Sequence record: OZ346221.1
Length of the DNA: 45,229 bases
Origin: a phage
Strand: one strand, 5' to 3'
Shown: one piece after another, positions 1,397 through 44,594 of the stretch
Layout of the letters: every line of letters begins with the position of its first letter
How positions within the stretch are numbered: the stretch's first letter is position 1
Translations under genes and position numbers: made by a program
The notes under the pieces: model-generated
The model's database searches: none
Told to the model about the DNA's origin: nothing
Seen by the model: the letters and a program-made list of their open reading frames with translations, nothing else

Positions 1397-2917
1397 ATGA
1401 CCGTTAACGTTGACAACCAGCACCCACTTTATGCGCGCATCGCGCCCGAGTGGAAGATGATCCGCGATTGTGTGGCAGGGGAGCGCGCCGTGAAGGCGTG
1501 CGGCCCCTTGTACCTGCCTCATCCCGCCAGTGGCGACAATACTGACCCGAAAGCACGGGCGCGGTATAAGGCGTACAAGCAACGCGCTGTATTCCTGAAC
1601 GCCACCGCCCGCACACTTAACGCGCTGTTAGGAGTTGCCTTTGCTAAACCGGTAAGTCTCGACCTTTCCGGGGCGATGGCTGACCTGATTGACGACGTAG
1701 ACGGCAGCGGAATGCCGCTGCCGCAACTCCTGCGCGGTGCTATGTCTGAAGTTCTGCAATCTGGCCGCGCAGGCTTTATGGTTGACTACGACCGCCAGGC
1801 GCATTTTGACGAACTGGGTAACGTAGTGCCGCAGACAGCCGCCGAGATGGCGTCACACCGCCCGCTTATCCGCCTATATACGGCAGAACAGATCATCAAC
1901 TGGCGGCAGACCCACGGCGTCGATACGCTGATTGTTCTGAAGGAAACGGACGAAATCAGCACCGAAGACCCGGACGACTTCGCAAACCACGAAGTAACAA
2001 TCTGGACCGAGCTTCGCATGATTAACGGTGCGGCACACGCCCGCCGCTGGTTTTATAATGCGGACACGTCCGAGGTGCAAATGGACTTGCCGCGGGGGTT
2101 TACCCGTACCGATCTTGTGCCGCTGGTGGATGCAGCCGGTAAGGCGCTGACACAACTCCCGTTTTGCTGGTGTGGTGCGGTGGACAACAACGCAACGCCG
2201 GACGCCGCGCCGCTGGCTGATATTGCGTCCATCAACATTAAGCACTACAACGCCGAAGCGGACGTCGCCGAGATTGCGCACATAGTGGGCCAACCAACCC
2301 TGGTTGCGACGGGCTTGACTCAATCATGGGCGGACAAAAACCTGAAAGGCGGCATCGCGCTCGGTGCGACTAAGGGCGTTATCCTGGGTCAGAACATGGA
2401 CGCCAAACTGCTTCAGGCCGAAGAACGAAACCTATCGGTCGCACTGTGTGAACGCCGAGAGCTGCAAATGGCTAAACTTGGCGCGGCCCTGGTCGAGAAG
2501 GGGACCGCACCTAAGACGGCAACCGAAGCGGCCTACGATGCGCAGACTGATAACAGTATCCTGTCACTGATTGCCGGTAACGTCGAGAAGGCTTTCAACC
2601 GTGCGCTGCAAATCGTCAAGCTGTTCACGGGCGACACCGCAGATCAACGCGTAACGCTGAATAAGTTCTACACCGAAATCACGGTTGACGCACAGCTTAT
2701 GACCGCAATGATGGCGGGTGTGCAGACCGGTACGGTCCGGCTGGCGGACTTTATCAAGTGGATGATGGCCCAGGGCGTCATTGATGACTCGCAAACCGTC
2801 GAGCAGGTGGAAGACGAACTGCGAAATCAGAATCCATTGCCTCAAATGTCCCCTGATGCGGTAGAATCCACCGAAGAAGACCCGGACAAGGTAGCGGACA
2901 ATGGCGAAGACAATTAA
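1397..2917 (+). CDS. portal protein
   Basis: 506-aa ORF immediately after terL, acidic C-terminus, RBS AAGGAAA upstream; position and size typical of a portal. Confidence 0.7.
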   Translation: MTVNVDNQHPLYARIAPEWKMIRDCVAGERAVKACGPLYLPHPASGDNTDPKARARYKAYKQRAVFLNATARTLNALLGVAFAKPVSLDLSGAMADLIDDVDGSGMPLPQLLRGAMSEVLQSGRAGFMVDYDRQAHFDELGNVVPQTAAEMASHRPLIRLYTAEQIINWRQTHGVDTLIVLKETDEISTEDPDDFANHEVTIWTELRMINGAAHARRWFYNADTSEVQMDLPRGFTRTDLVPLVDAAGKALTQLPFCWCGAVDNNATPDAAPLADIASINIKHYNAEADVAEIAHIVGQPTLVATGLTQSWADKNLKGGIALGATKGVILGQNMDAKLLQAEERNLSVALCERRELQMAKLGAALVEKGTAPKTATEAAYDAQTDNSILSLIAGNVEKAFNRALQIVKLFTGDTADQRVTLNKFYTEITVDAQLMTAMMAGVQTGTVRLADFIKWMMAQGVIDDSQTVEQVEDELRNQNPLPQMSPDAVESTEEDPDKVADNGEDN

Positions 2918-4004
2918 TCAATATATGGCGGATCGAATGATTCGCCGTCACATCTTCACCCAGCGCCTGAGCAATGATCAGGCGCGACGGGTGCTGGCTA
3001 TGTGGGAGAAGTTCCGGCCCGCTTTACTGGGTAAGTTGACCGAGTTACTTGATGGCAAAAAGTCCATGAGCAACAAGGCACTTACCACACTGTTAACCCG
3101 AATCGACAAGACCGTCAAAACGGAACTGCGCGCCGAGTTTAAAGTGCTGGCGGAGAGCCTTCAGGAGTTCGCCGACACCGAGGCTGATTATCTCTCGGAC
3201 ACACTAACGGCAGCGATCCAGCCCGCGGTCGCCATACCCGCGGTGGAGGTGGTGAGTGTAGTGACTGGCGCGCAGATCGCAGCGACTGCAATGAGAAACC
3301 CGTTCCAGGGTAACACCATGATGCAGTGGCCTGATTCACTTTCCGAGTGGACCAGGACGCAGATCGGTAATCAGGTGCGCGCCGGATTCATCCAGGGCAA
3401 GCCAACGATGGAAATTATTGCGGATGTGAGGCGCGCGCTAGGCGGTCGTAGTGCGCAAGCAATCTCAAGCGTTGTTAAGTCCGCGGTCAACCACTACGCG
3501 GCTACCGCCCGCGAATTAATGGTAAAAGCTAATGACGATATTCTCGAAGGTCGCCAATGGTTGGCTACATTGGACACTCATACTTCCCCAATGTGCCAGC
3601 TACGCGATCGCCTGTTTTATCCTGTTGACGTCACTCCCGACACCAAAGGAAAGCGCGGCGGGAAAGTGGTGGCTGGATCACAATATGGCGCTGGTCCGGG
3701 CAAGCTACATTATTGCTGCCGTTCGACGGAGACGTGGAAAGTTAAGGGCATGGAAGATTGGCCCAGTGGTAAGCGTCCGGCACTGAAGGCTGAAGCGGGC
3801 AGATTGCTGAGTGAGCAGGTCGACGCGCAGACTGATTTCTTCTCATGGGTGCAGCGCCAGCCGCGCCATATTCTGGAGGAATTATATGGAGTGCAGCGCG
3901 CAGACCAGATTATGCGAGGCGTGAGAGTGCCGAAGATGTTCACCGATTCTGGCGAACTGATGACTATCGCACAGCTTAAAAACCGGGGGTTATGGCGTGA
4001 TTAA
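2901..4004 (+). CDS. MuF-like minor head (head morphogenesis) protein
   Basis: 367 aa, follows portal; contains WLATLDTHTSPMCQLRDRLFYPV, resembling the conserved MuF/SPP1 gp7 motif. Confidence 0.65.
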   Translation: MAKTINQYMADRMIRRHIFTQRLSNDQARRVLAMWEKFRPALLGKLTELLDGKKSMSNKALTTLLTRIDKTVKTELRAEFKVLAESLQEFADTEADYLSDTLTAAIQPAVAIPAVEVVSVVTGAQIAATAMRNPFQGNTMMQWPDSLSEWTRTQIGNQVRAGFIQGKPTMEIIADVRRALGGRSAQAISSVVKSAVNHYAATARELMVKANDDILEGRQWLATLDTHTSPMCQLRDRLFYPVDVTPDTKGKRGGKVVAGSQYGAGPGKLHYCCRSTETWKVKGMEDWPSGKRPALKAEAGRLLSEQVDAQTDFFSWVQRQPRHILEELYGVQRADQIMRGVRVPKMFTDSGELMTIAQLKNRGLWRD

Positions 4005-4305
4005 ATACGCAGCGATTGGGCTGGTAATAGGCCTGGCGGTTGGATTCTGGCAGGGGGATTCCTACCGCGCAGGCGTTGAGGCGAGAGCGGCGCAAGAAGC
4101 GCAAGCGAAAGCCCAACGGCAGCAAACTAAGGTCGTCGAGGGGGCGGTGCAAGCAGAACAGACCCGCGATGTGGAATACCGGACTATCACGAAAGAGGTT
4201 GTAAAATATGTTACGCGTCCTAACCGTCCTGATTGCAGTTTTGATGATGAGCGCGTGCGGATCAAGCAACGTGCCATCGACGCCGCTAACCGAGTCGGTC
4301 TATAG
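3997..4305 (+). CDS. Rz-like inner-membrane spanin candidate
   Basis: GTG start; N-terminal TM helix MIKYAAIGLVIGLAVGFW followed by Ala/Gln/Glu-rich coiled-coil-like region; overlapped out of frame by a lipoprotein ORF. Confidence 0.5.
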   Translation: MIKYAAIGLVIGLAVGFWQGDSYRAGVEARAAQEAQAKAQRQQTKVVEGAVQAEQTRDVEYRTITKEVVKYVTRPNRPDCSFDDERVRIKQRAIDAANRVGL

Positions 4306-4438
4306 GCCACCTTGCACCTTTGAGAATGCCTCGGCAGATCCAGACGAAGATTTGCTGGTTGATGTTAAAAATATGGAGTGCGGTGCTAAGCTGAGGGCGC
4401 AGGTCCTGGAGTTGCAGCAAATAATTAAGGGGCCGTAA
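4208..4438 (+). CDS. Rz1-like outer-membrane lipoprotein spanin candidate
   Basis: Signal peptide with lipobox-like MSAC, Pro-containing mature region with extra Cys; RBS AAAGAGG upstream; starts inside and extends beyond the Rz-like ORF. Confidence 0.5.
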   Translation: MLRVLTVLIAVLMMSACGSSNVPSTPLTESVYRPPCTFENASADPDEDLLVDVKNMECGAKLRAQVLELQQIIKGP

Positions 4439-4450
4439 TGGCCCCTTTTT
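4429..4450. terminator. bidirectional intrinsic terminator between convergent genes
   Basis: GGGGCC-GTAAT-GGCCCC hairpin followed by TTTTT on + strand and flanked by A/T on the other; sits between + gene ending 4438 and - gene ending 4453 (approximate coordinates). Confidence 0.6.
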
Positions 4451-4452
4451 CG

Positions 4453-5217
4453 TTAGCGCGGAATACCGCAAATCTCGTTGAGAGTTTTCACATCCAGCGC
4501 CACCGCCGTGGACTTCGGCTTGTCCGGGTAAGGGATGAATTGCTCAACTTCAGGCCATGCCTTAATCAGCTTCTTGTCAGTATTGTGCAGGTCCAGAACA
4601 CCGGTAACGGTTAGTTTGAACGCATCATACTTCGCGCGCAACTCGCTACGGGCCTTGTCGTTGCGGTCCAAGCGTTTACAGAAGTCATGGTCTGCCGGGT
4701 AATCTACGCGACCGCGAGGGAGATATATCGGCAGCGCATTCCCGTCCTCGTCCACTTCACACACCGACGCGAGCATAACTGTCTCGAACCCCGGAACGAT
4801 ATCGCCGAGATCAGGCGCAAGCTTATTCATATATTTCTCTTCCCAGTATCCGCGATGTACGCGGTATTGGCGACCGTCACCGCTCAATGACAAGGTGCGA
4901 ACATTGCCGCCTGCGTTGATTTCAAAGGTGGCGTTATAGACGCTGCCGATACCCTTCGGGCGGTCGGAGTTATAACTATACGTCGCCTTGTTGGTGTATA
5001 CGCTGACGCCGTACATCTGCGACTGGTCGTCGCGGATTTCCTTGATATGCTCGCGGAGCGCTGCGAATGTGCGAATGCCGTCCGGCATACAGTCCAGCGT
5101 GATTGCGTACGCCAGATCGCGAGAGTCCATCATGATTTGTTTGGCTTCGGTTGCGATTTCGTGGTCGCGCAGGATGTTAGCCAGAATCTGGTTTTTAATG
5201 TCTTTCGTCAGTCTCAT
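4453..5217 (-). CDS. hypothetical protein, reverse-oriented accessory gene inside the head module
   Basis: 254 aa from internal ATG (MRLTKDIKNQ...) with RBS GAGGA; long N-terminal extension in the ORF track judged spurious; no recognisable motif. Confidence 0.6.
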   Translation of the reverse strand: MRLTKDIKNQILANILRDHEIATEAKQIMMDSRDLAYAITLDCMPDGIRTFAALREHIKEIRDDQSQMYGVSVYTNKATYSYNSDRPKGIGSVYNATFEINAGGNVRTLSLSGDGRQYRVHRGYWEEKYMNKLAPDLGDIVPGFETVMLASVCEVDEDGNALPIYLPRGRVDYPADHDFCKRLDRNDKARSELRAKYDAFKLTVTGVLDLHNTDKKLIKAWPEVEQFIPYPDKPKSTAVALDVKTLNEICGIPR

Positions 5218-5224
5218 TAGTGTG

Positions 5225-5262
5225 TCCTCGTTGTTGGTGTGCAACCAATATATGCAACCAAT
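5225..5262 (-). promoter_or_regulatory. sigma70-like promoter for the 4453..5217 gene, with tandem TGCAACCAAT motifs
   Basis: On the - strand: TTGCAA, 17-nt spacer, TATATT, then leader ATTGGTTGCACACCAAC...GAGGA; leader nearly identical to the one upstream of 40493 (approximate coordinates). Confidence 0.45.
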
Positions 5263-5365
5263 ATGAGGATTGCAAGCGAATTTTGCGATTATTTTTATCG
5301 CTGATAATATTAGAAGCGTGAAGTCGAGCGGGTGGCCTGCTCTGCCACAATCCCAGGGGGATAGC

Positions 5366-6070
5366 ATGAAACTTACTAAAGCAGAATATGACGCGTTGCC
5401 GGAAGGTATGAAGGCGCTTTTTGTTGCCGATGGCGACGGGTATAAATCAACGTTCATGACCGCAGAAGAAGTACAGGCGGAAATCAAGGGTCTGAAAGAC
5501 AATAACGCGAAGCTGGTGAGCGAGAAGAAAGCAGAAGCTGAACGCCGCGCCGAAGCCGAGCGACTTGCGAAAGAGAAAGAGGAAGCCGCCGCGCGAAAAA
5601 ATGGTGACCTCGAAGCGATCGACAAGTCCTGGAAAGATAAGTTTGCGAAACACGAAGCAGACACATCGGGAAAAATCGAAGCCTACCGCAAGCAGATCCA
5701 CGATCTAACCATCGGCAGCGCTGCCAAAGACCTGGCCTCGAAGCTGTTCGGTAAGAATGCTGGCATCATGCAACGCCACGTTATGGACCGCCTGACGCTG
5801 GAAGACGGCGAAGACGGCAGCTTGAAGGTGCGTGTCTTGCAGGATGGCAAACCATCCGCGCTGACTATGGAAGAGCTTGAAAAAGAGTTCCGTAATAACG
5901 CCGATTTTGCATCCGTCCTGGCTGGCACGCCAGCCGGTGGTGCGCCGAGCAAACCGACGCATGTTGTCGAAGATGTGAAGTCGAAAATCTCTATGGGCCA
6001 CAGCTTCGGTATCACCGATCTCACCAAACAGGCGGGGGATATCATCGCGAAGATGGGCGACGACGAGTAA
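5366..6070 (+). CDS. scaffolding protein candidate
   Basis: 235 aa from ATG with GGGGGA RBS; Ala/Glu/Lys-rich helical sequence; located directly upstream of the major capsid gene. Confidence 0.5.
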   Translation: MKLTKAEYDALPEGMKALFVADGDGYKSTFMTAEEVQAEIKGLKDNNAKLVSEKKAEAERRAEAERLAKEKEEAAARKNGDLEAIDKSWKDKFAKHEADTSGKIEAYRKQIHDLTIGSAAKDLASKLFGKNAGIMQRHVMDRLTLEDGEDGSLKVRVLQDGKPSALTMEELEKEFRNNADFASVLAGTPAGGAPSKPTHVVEDVKSKISMGHSFGITDLTKQAGDIIAKMGDDE

Positions 6071-21051: not shown

Positions 21052-21270
21052 TTATTCGCAGGTGGTGTTTTTGAAATGGTCTACCGACACGTACTGGAAG
21101 CTAAACGGATAACCCGCCCTTAGCATTTTATGCCCGGAGAAGTCTGCGACACCATACACAGGGACCGCATAATCAATGCCGCTATTCTGGTATGTGGCGT
21201 CGCAGACTTTAGCGGGCATGTTGGCACAACCGGACAAAAGAACCGCACAAATCATAATTAAAGTTTTCAT
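21052..21270 (-). CDS. small reverse-strand lipoprotein, candidate receptor-blocking superinfection-exclusion protein (Cor/Llp-like by context)
   Basis: 72 aa from internal ATG; signal peptide MKTLIMICAVLLSGC with lipobox LSGC; RBS AGGGGA; only - strand gene in the tail module, divergent from the tail-fibre gene. Confidence 0.55.
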   Translation of the reverse strand: MKTLIMICAVLLSGCANMPAKVCDATYQNSGIDYAVPVYGVADFSGHKMLRAGYPFSFQYVSVDHFKNTTCE

Positions 21271-41690: not shown

Positions 41691-41726
41691 TAGTCCCAGT
41701 GAGCTAAAACTTACTGGGACTTTTTT
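41691..41726 (+). terminator. intrinsic terminator immediately upstream of the holin gene
   Basis: GTCCCAGT-(12-nt loop)-ACTGGGAC hairpin followed by TTTTTT, ending at the holin ATG (approximate coordinates). Confidence 0.55.
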
Positions 41727-42017
41727 ATGGATAAGCTAAACGAGTGGTTATTCGCCCTTGCGTGTCTTGCTGGTGGCTTCGTGGGCGCACGCATTCACGG
41801 CGAGGCAACGAAAGGGCCGTTGAACTTCGTTTTATATGTCGTAGTTGGCTTCCTGTGTGCCATATTTGGTGCGCCAGCTATTGCCGAGTGGTCTGGTTTG
41901 TCTGGCGAGCGCACTGTCGCCGGTTTGGGCTTCGTAACTGCCATCTTCTGGATGCCAATCGCCGACCGGATCCGGGAGACAATTGCGACGCTACACCTTC
42001 CGGGGGGCGCAAAATGA
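41727..42017 (+). CDS. holin candidate
   Basis: 96 aa with three predicted TM helices; first gene of the holin/antiholin/endolysin cluster. Confidence 0.55.
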   Translation: MDKLNEWLFALACLAGGFVGARIHGEATKGPLNFVLYVVVGFLCAIFGAPAIAEWSGLSGERTVAGLGFVTAIFWMPIADRIRETIATLHLPGGAK

Positions 42018-42259
42018 TTATCTCCGTCCTGTTGTTTGTTATCATAGGGGCTTCGTCCCTGTTTAACGTGTATGCGCCGTCCGTTCAGGATGGCTTCTTC
42101 GGTCGGGTGTTATATCTGCTAACAGCAATGACCTGTATTGTCGGGCTGTTGCAAACGGGAGACGTATCAGATACCACCTGGACCGCGTTAATCTGGCTGT
42201 TTGCATTGCGCACGCTGCGTAATGCTGTTTTGAATGGGGTAAAACATGCGATTCAGTGA
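42014..42259 (+). CDS. second holin/antiholin-like membrane protein
   Basis: 81 aa from internal ATG with GGGGG RBS and ATGA overlap; two to three predicted TM helices. Confidence 0.5.
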   Translation: MIISVLLFVIIGASSLFNVYAPSVQDGFFGRVLYLLTAMTCIVGLLQTGDVSDTTWTALIWLFALRTLRNAVLNGVKHAIQ

Positions 42260-42737
42260 TAACGGTCTACGATTTACGGCAGCATGGGAGGCTTTCAGCC
42301 CGGTGCCGTATTTCGCGACCAAGAAAGAGCAGGCCCGCGGCCTGTACACCTGGGGTTATGGGCACACTGGCACTACTCCGCCACGAAGCATTACCCGTGC
42401 GGAAGCACTGGAGCTACTCAAGCGCGATGTGGCATATGCCGAGAACTGGGTGAACAAGTACGCACACCCGAGCATCAATCAGGCGCAATTCGACGCGCTG
42501 GTGGACCTGGTAATCAATGCCGGTCCTGGTCCGATCATGCCGGACGACGTAGCCGGTGATTTCGACGATGCGATCCGCCGGGGCGACTGGGCAAAGGTGC
42601 GGGCTATACTGCCACAATTCCGCAAGCAAGGTGGGGAAGTGCTGAAGGGGTTAGTCCGTCGAGCAATCGGCAGGCAGGCGCTATTCGATGGTAAGCAGTG
42701 GGACGTTGCCGAGAAGATCGGACGTAACGCAGCATAA
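42246..42737 (+). CDS. endolysin (phage lysozyme-like)
   Basis: 163 aa; GLYTWGYGHTG and QAQFDALVDLVINAG resemble the T4/lambda-type lysozyme core; overlaps the preceding membrane-protein gene. Confidence 0.65.
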   Translation: MRFSDNGLRFTAAWEAFSPVPYFATKKEQARGLYTWGYGHTGTTPPRSITRAEALELLKRDVAYAENWVNKYAHPSINQAQFDALVDLVINAGPGPIMPDDVAGDFDDAIRRGDWAKVRAILPQFRKQGGEVLKGLVRRAIGRQALFDGKQWDVAEKIGRNAA

Positions 42738-42753
42738 TACGGGGTAACACAGT

Positions 42754-43167
42754 ATGTTAAAAAGTATTCTTGATCATAACGCCGACGCGCTCGCCGCGCT
42801 GGCTAAAACCGAAGACCCAGGCGCACGCGCTATTGTAGCGGATACGATCAGCCATGCGGGGGTATTCGACGCGAAGTTACCCAGCCCGCCGGAAAGTAAG
42901 CCGGTGACAAGTGCCACCGTAACTATCACACCGAAATCCGCCGCAGTTGGTGCAAAGGCCGCCGCTTCGGTTGCGGTACAGCCATCCGACGCAACTAACA
43001 AGGCAGGGAAGTGGGTGTCGTCGAATCCTGCCTGTGCGGAAATCGATCAGACTACCGGCAAAATCACACCCCAAACGGCAGGTAGCGCTCACATCTTTTG
43101 GGTGGCATCTGATGGAGGCGGGGCGATGGCGTCCGCCATCTTCACCGTAACGGGAGCAGAAGAATAA
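42754..43167 (+). CDS. Ig-like (Big_2-type) domain protein
   Basis: 137 aa; C-terminal beta-rich VTSATVTITPKSAAVG...GSAHIFWVASDGGGAMASAIFTVTG typical of bacterial Ig-like domains. Confidence 0.45.
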   Translation: MLKSILDHNADALAALAKTEDPGARAIVADTISHAGVFDAKLPSPPESKPVTSATVTITPKSAAVGAKAAASVAVQPSDATNKAGKWVSSNPACAEIDQTTGKITPQTAGSAHIFWVASDGGGAMASAIFTVTGAEE

Positions 43168-43175
43168 AACCACAA

Positions 43176-43200
43176 GCCCGGTTAATTCCGGGCTTTTTAT
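43176..43200 (+). terminator. intrinsic terminator after the lysis cluster
   Basis: AGCCCGG-TTAATT-CCGGGCT hairpin followed by TTTTAT (approximate coordinates). Confidence 0.6.
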
Positions 43201-44564: not shown

Positions 44565-44594
44565 TCCCAGCCTGCCGATTTGGTGGGCTTTTTT
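44565..44594 (+). terminator. weak hairpin plus T-run upstream of terS
   Basis: Imperfect GC-rich stem around GCCTGCCGATTTGGTGGGC followed by TTTTTTG (approximate coordinates). Confidence 0.3.

Follow-up and report, generated by a model that had tools for sequence, protein, structure and literature searches.

The closest described systems are the spanins of phages EP23, HK578, JL1, SSL-2009a and SO-1, which Kongari et al. (2018; PMC6139136) placed in the overlapped 'Jersey' spanin family. In that census, the five phages form a shorter subfamily, with two helices in the i-spanin and two constant cysteines in the o-spanin. Spanin genes that lie apart from the other lysis genes have also been described. 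PseT.3/PseT.2 of T4 are a precedent for spanins that are unlinked to the holin (t) and the endolysin (e) (PMC6139136); for phage Schulenberg, the separation of the spanins from the other lysis genes has been stated in print (PMC6763661); and in the Jerseyvirus SeF1 the spanins are Gp_009/010, with the holins and endolysin at Gp_063-065 (PMC9409062). In our literature searches, no experimental study of a Jersey-family spanin came up, and the assignment made below therefore rests on architecture, homology and context.

We analysed sequence record OZ346221.1, whose 45,229 nt (the window) make up the entire genome of an E. coli siphophage of the Dhillonvirus type. Over the whole window, its nucleotide identity to SECphi18, Oekolampad and SM_S22 is 92-95%. 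Two overlapping genes immediately downstream of the head morphogenesis gene very probably encode the two-component spanin of this phage, which would break the outer membrane as the final step of lysis. The pair and the family to which it belongs are already documented, as is the location of the pair apart from the holin-endolysin cluster, and we show here how this locus compares with its relatives.

Architecture, coding and family of the gene pair

The region comprises the following features:

2901..4004, + strand: head morphogenesis gene (Mu F / SPP1 gp7-like; phrog_241, E 2.7e-115)
3997..4305, + strand: putative i-spanin gene (102 aa, GTG start; N-terminal TMD at about residues 2-18, predicted helical periplasmic domain)
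4208..4438, + strand: putative o-spanin gene (76 aa, ATG start; lipoprotein signal, lipobox M-S-A-C17)
4427..4447, scoring on both strands: terminator-like GC-rich hairpin (overlaps the o-spanin stop; consensus match)

A preliminary description of this DNA had placed the pair at 3997-4438, and both open reading frames are present there. We compared their products with the criteria for the two-component spanin class given by Summer (2007) and Kongari (2018), using alignments of 11 homologs per protein that extend down to 19-45% identity. The i-spanin, annotated as gp05 in Oekolampad, is small and has one TMD, at the N-terminus, ahead of a periplasmic domain predicted to be predominantly helical. 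Its hydrophobic N-terminus (MIKYAAIGLVIGLAVGFW) has a moderate hydropathy (Kyte-Doolittle 1.52 over 19 residues), and the hydrophobic character of this segment is kept across the family alignment. In the stretch that follows, residues 27-60 are 74% Ala/Gln/Glu/Lys/Arg. The sole cysteine, C80, lies within the motif TITKEVVKYVTRPNRPDCSFDD, which corresponds to the family motif TITKEVVKYVxxPNRxxCxFD and is followed by a short C-terminal segment. The protein as a whole is short, and only about 77 aa of it would lie in the periplasm. A single-sequence AlphaFold2 model of low confidence (pLDDT 61.7) is all-helical, with helices at residues 5-72 and 82-99 and a break that coincides with the PNRPDC motif. 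This helix-break-helix arrangement fits the published two-helix description, and it hints at helicity of the i-spanin.

The o-spanin, annotated as gp06 in Oekolampad, is likewise small and has the lipobox cysteine of a lipoprotein processed by signal peptidase II; Asp is absent from +2, as expected of a protein sorted to the outer membrane. Its predicted signal peptide (MLRVLTVLIAVLMMSA) would be cleaved before C17, with Gly at +2, to leave a mature protein of 60 aa that contains six Pro and two further cysteines (C36 and C58) and ends in the segment AKLRAQVLELQQII. The lipobox has Met at -3, vs the usual Leu/Val/Ile; most relatives have Leu. A Shine-Dalgarno-like AAAGAGG lies 9 nt 5' of the ATG. 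The o-spanin frame is +1 relative to that of the i-spanin and the two genes overlap by 98 nt, so that the pair consists of adjacent genes in different frames with the 'overlapped' spanin architecture. In the alignments of 11 diverse homologs, C80 of the i-spanin and C17, C36 and C58 of the o-spanin are all invariant; the periplasmic cysteines among these (C80, C36 and C58) are predicted to form intermolecular disulfides.

Short overlapping ORFs are frequent in GC-rich DNA, with many in this window, and many GenBank records annotate one gene of the two or call both hypothetical. It could be argued from this that the TMD protein alone is real and that the 76-aa lipoprotein ORF is a chance out-of-frame reading. 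We applied a codon-position test to ten copies at the Dhillonvirus level, namely those of the window, Oekolampad, TheodorHerzl and seven contigs from IMG/VR; the IMG/VR scan with the i-spanin returned these seven close loci, which are usable for this test and not as a measure of breadth. Across the ten copies, the 442-nt pair has zero indels. Upstream of the overlap, variable sites at i-frame position 3 numbered 43/70, vs 23/71 and 10/70 at the other two positions. Downstream of the i-spanin stop, it is position 3 of the o-frame at which variable sites predominate (30/44, vs 13/43 and 6/43). Because the codon position of the variable sites switches from the i-frame to the o-frame, both frames are translated and under purifying selection, with the frame switch at the overlap.

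Conservation over greater distances points the same way. By tblastn, the i-spanin matched 677 phage records and the o-spanin 642, with the pair found in about 158-161 records at the Dhillonvirus level; in 581 of the 642 records the o-spanin ORF is full-length, down to 30-45% identity. A chance ORF would also have to account for the move of the codon-position signal to the o-frame past the i-spanin stop, three invariant cysteines, the Shine-Dalgarno-like sequence upstream of the ATG and PHROG families of the o-spanin's own. The comparative data refute it as an explanation of the lipoprotein gene, and we regard its probability as practically negligible.

At its 5' end, the pair is linked to the head morphogenesis gene, the stop of which overlaps the i-spanin GTG start by 8 nt (GTGATTAA). 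The overlap is kept in ten Dhillonvirus copies and suggests that the two genes are co-transcribed, and possibly translationally coupled. At the 3' end, the hairpin at 4427-4447 combines a stem of 9 bp and a T-run when read on the + strand, and has 8 bp on the - strand. It is predicted to close both the terminase/portal/head-morphogenesis/spanin unit and the convergent Nmad5 gene.

Both proteins belong by homology to recognised spanin groups. The i-spanin matches phrog_2536 (E 9.9e-36), and the o-spanin matches phrog_5672 (E 2.6e-25) and phrog_1267 (8.1e-12), all 'Rz-like spanin'. Both subunits are significantly similar to members of the Jersey family and of phrog_2536 and phrog_5672: blastp of the window pair against the Jersey pair gave 1e-13 and 9e-14, and the region is 91% identical in nucleotide sequence to the listed Jersey-family members EP23 and SSL-2009a. 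At 91-95% nucleotide identity, the pair is labelled i-spanin/o-spanin in Oekolampad (gp05/gp06), TheodorHerzl (gp05/gp06) and others, the Oekolampad and TheodorHerzl annotations being the product of the SpaninDataBase tool. In Pfam, neither protein matched any family at E <= 1, including those of lambda Rz (PF03245) and Rz1 (PF06085); an NCBIfam scan of both proteins matched no family; and PDB profile searches with the family alignments gave chance-level matches only (E > 0.1). No sequence relationship of the pair to lambda Rz/Rz1 was detectable. Since Pfam, NCBIfam and PDB matches are absent, the pair is assigned to the spanin functional class and to the Jersey family, outside the lambda Rz/Rz1 sequence families.

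The preliminary description had read the pair as spanin-like from an MSAC lipobox, Pro content, an extra cysteine and an out-of-frame overlap. All of these features are confirmed in the sequence, and the reading itself is borne out by the architecture, the PHROG matches, the annotation of relatives and the Kongari 2018 census. It had also allowed that homology might place the proteins in a different family; the homology found is to spanin PHROGs.

Position relative to the lysis cluster

The other lysis genes of the genome lie towards the end of the window:

41727..42017, + strand: holin-class membrane protein 1 (phrog_2359 holin, E 9.6e-31; K1ind1 homolog 46% identity)
42014..42259, + strand: holin-class membrane protein 2, holin or antiholin (phrog_2508 holin, 7.8e-28; K1ind1 homolog 51% identity)
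42246..42737, + strand: endolysin, lysozyme family (PF00959, 6.3e-21; phrog_7, 1.3e-37)
42754..43167, + strand: Big_2 Ig-like ORF, follows the endolysin

As described beforehand, a holin/holin/endolysin cluster at 41727-42737 is followed by an Ig-like ORF at 42754-43167, with no spanin after the endolysin. The endolysin is without an N-terminal signal-anchor. The Big_2 ORF has neither a TMD nor a lipobox and was rejected as a spanin or u-spanin. As a separate observation on this ORF, its N-terminal ~45-60 residues are kept in all Dhillonviruses, whereas only about 42 of 168 records have the Big_2 domain.

The pair had been described as displaced by about 38 kb from the holin and endolysin. This distance depends on where the map begins. 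The window begins with the A of the TerL start codon, a base that also completes the TAA stop of TerS; the TerS gene runs off the window end, and the overlap of TerS stop and TerL start is restored across the end/start junction. Because the TerS stop spans this junction, the window is a circular assembly, opened arbitrarily at the TerL start codon. Among GenBank relatives, the record coordinates of the homologous region run from about 0.4 kb up to 38 kb, and for the BASEL phage genomes linearisation at the small terminase gene was deliberate (PMC8594841).

Read through the junction, the order on the + strand is holin, second holin-class gene, endolysin, Big_2 ORF, a metallophosphatase/exonuclease-like gene, TerS, TerL, portal, head morphogenesis, i-spanin and o-spanin. 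The apparent 38-kb gap is a product of cutting the circle at the TerL start codon, and it shrinks to about 6.5 kb across this arbitrary linearisation point. More exactly, the i-spanin lies 6,488 nt from the endolysin, with the spanins downstream and on the same strand. Linkage of spanins to the holin and endolysin, which is usual and not defining, is thus absent here.

A window-wide lipobox scan picked out two ORFs only; the o-spanin and a Cor-like exclusion lipoprotein at 21052-21270(-). Neither has a C-terminal TMD, and a u-spanin of the T1 gp11 type was rejected. The genome-wide scan returned no spanin candidate besides the 3997-4438 pair. Spanin-less phages and disruptins exist (Kongari 2018, PMC6139136), and the i-spanin is unusually short; the pair might on this account be a decaying relic, with an unrecognised single-protein disruptin or u-spanin elsewhere disrupting the outer membrane. 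We consider this most improbable, given that both frames are under purifying selection with not one indel in ten genomes, that the pair is present in the Dhillonvirus-level records counted above and that no ORF in the window joins a lipobox to the C-terminal TMD expected of the u-spanin type.

Relatives and proposed role

The same slot, after head morphogenesis and before the scaffold/major capsid genes, holds the pair in five further phages: Salmonella phage Jersey, E. coli phage K1ind1 (Kagunavirus), FSL SP-031 (Cornellvirus), Serratia phage Smarc3 and Hafnia phage TS33. In K1ind1, the holin-class homologs (46% and 51% identity) and the endolysin (49%) are upstream of the terminase, as in the window. 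ORFs 31-33 of the Dhillonvirus P78 encode its holins and endolysin, and ORF 40 its spanin. The SeF1 holins fall in PHROGs 2359 and 2508, as do those of the window, and its endolysin in a lysozyme-type PHROG (PMC9409062). Schulenberg is a tblastn match of the window i-spanin. With homologous holins, endolysin and spanins, Kagunavirus thus shares the split layout by orthology, and Jerseyvirus also shows it. The position of the pair, which had been described as displaced, is one conserved in K1ind1, Jersey, FSL SP-031 and the Serratia and Hafnia phages, and the split layout is in print for Schulenberg and visible in the gene numbering of SeF1.

A different arrangement is found in Yersinia phage vB_YenS_P400 and Klebsiella phage VLCpiS13d, where homologous pairs directly follow the endolysin and holin. 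Their i-spanins match phrog_2536 (7e-30 and 3.6e-33), and blastp gave 1e-16 and 7e-14; the overlapping lipobox ORFs that would be their o-spanins are unannotated or mis-annotated in GenBank. These canonical cassettes favour a lysis role for the homologous pair in the window.

They also bear on the possibility that the pair has no lysis role and is instead an envelope-modifying or superinfection-exclusion module, in which an inner-membrane protein and a lipoprotein would block incoming phage DNA or a receptor in the manner of T4 Imm/Sp or Cor/Llp. Exclusion factors are common among the small lipoproteins of phages, the pair is not next to the holin and endolysin, and the P400 o-spanin homolog weakly matches the Cor family phrog_1119, although through the signal peptide only (E 3.3e-4). 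The window o-spanin, however, has no phrog_1119 match and is not located by the tail-tip/RBP genes, as would be expected of a Cor/Llp protein, whereas a true Cor homolog is already present beside the tail-tip genes at 21052-21270(-) (phrog_1119, 7e-26). Furthermore, the pair lies in the late structural operon and not in an early or moron position, and without it the phage would have no spanin. An exclusion module is therefore very improbable: the Cor homolog fills the exclusion niche and the genome has no other spanin, both of which favour a role in lysis. The preliminary description had left a choice between displaced spanins and another envelope role; the lack of adjacency to the holin and endolysin stands, whilst another role is disfavoured by the P400 and VLCpiS13d cassettes.

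For a spanin, the lambda Rz/Rz1 paradigm, together with the Kongari census, suggests the following steps. The 102-aa i-spanin would insert its N-terminal helix into the inner membrane in type II orientation, with the helical domain in the periplasm, and the 76-aa o-spanin would be lipidated at C17 and sorted by the Lol system to the outer membrane, where it would sit in the inner leaflet. Heterotypic contacts between their C-terminal regions may join the two proteins, with homotypic disulfides through C80 and C36/C58. The disulfide-linked complexes would thread through the peptidoglycan mesh, where intact murein restrains them, and would accumulate without harm while the late genes are expressed. 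Degradation of the wall by the two holin-class proteins and the endolysin would then let them collapse and fuse the inner and outer membranes, so releasing the progeny. From the overlap and the terminator-like hairpin, the pair is predicted to be expressed as the tail end of the terminase/portal/head-morphogenesis unit. Presumably, since spanins do not set lysis timing, late expression is enough and linkage to the holin is unneeded; the pair is one more case of the known fact that spanins need late expression, not holin linkage.

The head-module position is conserved in Dhillonvirus and Guernseyvirinae and is probably the ancestral one. A more speculative and, in our view, doubtful extension is that the entire lysis cassette of this siphovirus supergroup originally lay in the slot after head morphogenesis. 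This state would have been retained by P400 and VLCpiS13d, whilst in Dhillonvirus and Guernseyvirinae the holin and endolysin were relocated or replaced at the lambda-like position upstream of the terminase, and the spanins were left behind and then captured into the head operon. If this were true, the Dhillonvirus coupling to the head morphogenesis gene might tune spanin dose to capsid production.

If these genes were consistently labelled as spanins, the set of lysis genes would be complete in about 160 genomes of Dhillonvirus and several hundred of Guernseyvirinae. The value for annotation follows from the many GenBank records that call these genes 'hypothetical' or miss the o-spanin. For therapeutic engineering or 'lysis cassette' cloning, the holin-endolysin cluster alone would be without the outer-membrane step.

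Comparison with known spanin systems

Among Dhillonvirus copies, the window pair is an allelic variant (88-96% protein identity) distinguished by Met at lipobox -3, and its i-spanin has a short C-terminus (102 aa, vs 109 aa in some relatives). With the short subfamily of the Jersey family (EP23/HK578/JL1/SSL-2009a/SO-1; PHROGs 2536 + 5672/1267), it shares the overlap, the two-helix i-spanin, the two o-spanin cysteines and the position, and it has no substantial difference from them. The Guernseyvirinae spanins (Jersey gp09/10, K1ind1 gp06/07 and Schulenberg) are homologous, at 33-45% identity, and occupy the same slot. Their i-spanins are longer than that of the window, at about 117-128 aa, and, unlike in the window, a decoration-protein gene and a gap separate the head morphogenesis gene from the spanins. 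In FSL SP-031, the i-/o-spanin overlap is 8 nt only, vs 98 nt in the window.

P400 and VLCpiS13d resemble the window in having the spanins after the head morphogenesis gene, but differ in that the endolysin and holin are immediately upstream in a contiguous cassette. T4 also has a small i-spanin (117 aa) and a larger o-spanin (83 aa) with a C-terminal helix. Its spanin genes, however, are separated and non-overlapping, and all of the T4 lysis genes are scattered, whereas the holin and endolysin of the window are clustered.

Compared with lambda, the window has an i-spanin shorter by one third and a longer o-spanin, in which Pro is less abundant and the C-terminal segment is helix-like. The lambda Rz/Rz1 genes are fully embedded, whereas those of the window are overlapped and not adjacent to the endolysin, and there is no sequence homology between the two pairs. 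Nonetheless, the functional class and the predicted topology are the same: both pair a type II inner-membrane protein with a +1-frame outer-membrane lipoprotein. Both also carry periplasmic cysteines, and in both phages the terminase genes come shortly after the lysis cluster.

Genes neighbouring the spanin pair

The spanin pair is met head-on by a reverse-strand gene, and the reverse-strand genes near the pair differ between the window and the relatives L018 (TheodorHerzl), L014 (the Cornellvirus FSL SP-031) and L015 (Yersinia phage P400):

Window 4453-5217, reverse strand: Nmad5-domain gene, convergent on the spanins (PF18757, 8.4e-44)
L018 1749-2267, reverse strand: DNA polymerase III beta-like gene
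L014 2726-3580, reverse strand: PAPS reductase gene
L015 4305-5012, reverse strand: thymidylate synthase gene

Nmad5 is the nucleotide modification associated domain 5; the 403-aa, GTG-start ORF called at 4453-5664 probably over-extends this gene of ~254 aa. The surroundings of the spanin pair look like a variable cargo slot. In the window, the spanin-side limit of the slot is a terminator-like hairpin (4427-4447).

Spanin reading frames and their annotation

Within the genus, the i-spanin C-terminus occurs in two lengths, 102 aa (...RVGL) and 109 aa (...GVGTATAVQVR). We compared the 3' ends in TheodorHerzl and three further Dhillonvirus-level copies of the region (L008, L009 and L011) with window 4297-4305. 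There was no indel in the nucleotide alignment, and the change in length therefore results from substitution of the stop codon. This substitution falls within the overlap with the coding region for the o-spanin signal peptide/linker.

Many Dhillonvirus records have one or both spanins as "hypothetical protein" or mislabelled; in UDS3lw, for example, "I-spanin" is placed over the o-spanin. In the GenBank records of three other phages, the o-spanin ORF is either unannotated or replaced by a shorter call:

L015 4041-4280: o-spanin ORF, Yersinia phage P400
L016 4092-4337: o-spanin ORF, Klebsiella phage VLCpiS13d
L017 4001-4243: o-spanin ORF, Hafnia phage TS33

The lysis cluster on a circular map

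Base 1 of the window is both the A of the TerL ATG and the last base of the small terminase TAA stop (45229/1 junction). The window represents a circular assembly, cut open where TerL begins, and every long-range distance on the linear map is thus arbitrary. Strong terminator-like hairpins, each a consensus match only, flank the unit of holin, holin, endolysin and Big_2 ORF, with another after an exonuclease-like gene:

41692-41721: hairpin
43174-43195: hairpin
44569-44589: hairpin

These matches suggest that the lysis cluster is a transcription unit of its own, distinct from that running from terminase to spanins.

Post-endolysin ORF and Cor-like lipoprotein

42754-43167, forward strand: two-module fusion ORF after the endolysin (phrog_11068 and PF02368)
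21052-21270, reverse strand: Cor-like lipoprotein, 72 aa (lipobox; match to the superinfection-exclusion protein Cor, phrog_1119, 7e-26)

The N-terminal module of the fusion (~48 aa; phrog_11068, 2e-33) is kept in all Dhillonviruses; the C-terminal Big_2 Ig-like domain (PF02368, 1.6e-10) occurs in only ~42 of 168 related records. The ORF goes under the label "major tail protein" in some records. In Oekolampad, a close relative, it consists of the N-terminal part alone (55 aa).

Across the whole genome, the Cor-like gene is the only lipobox ORF besides the o-spanin, with the signal peptide MKTLIMICAVLLSG/C.... On the Oekolampad map, the Cor-equivalent site is a small reverse-strand cluster with a J-like tail-tip gene on one side and a lateral tail-fibre gene on the other.
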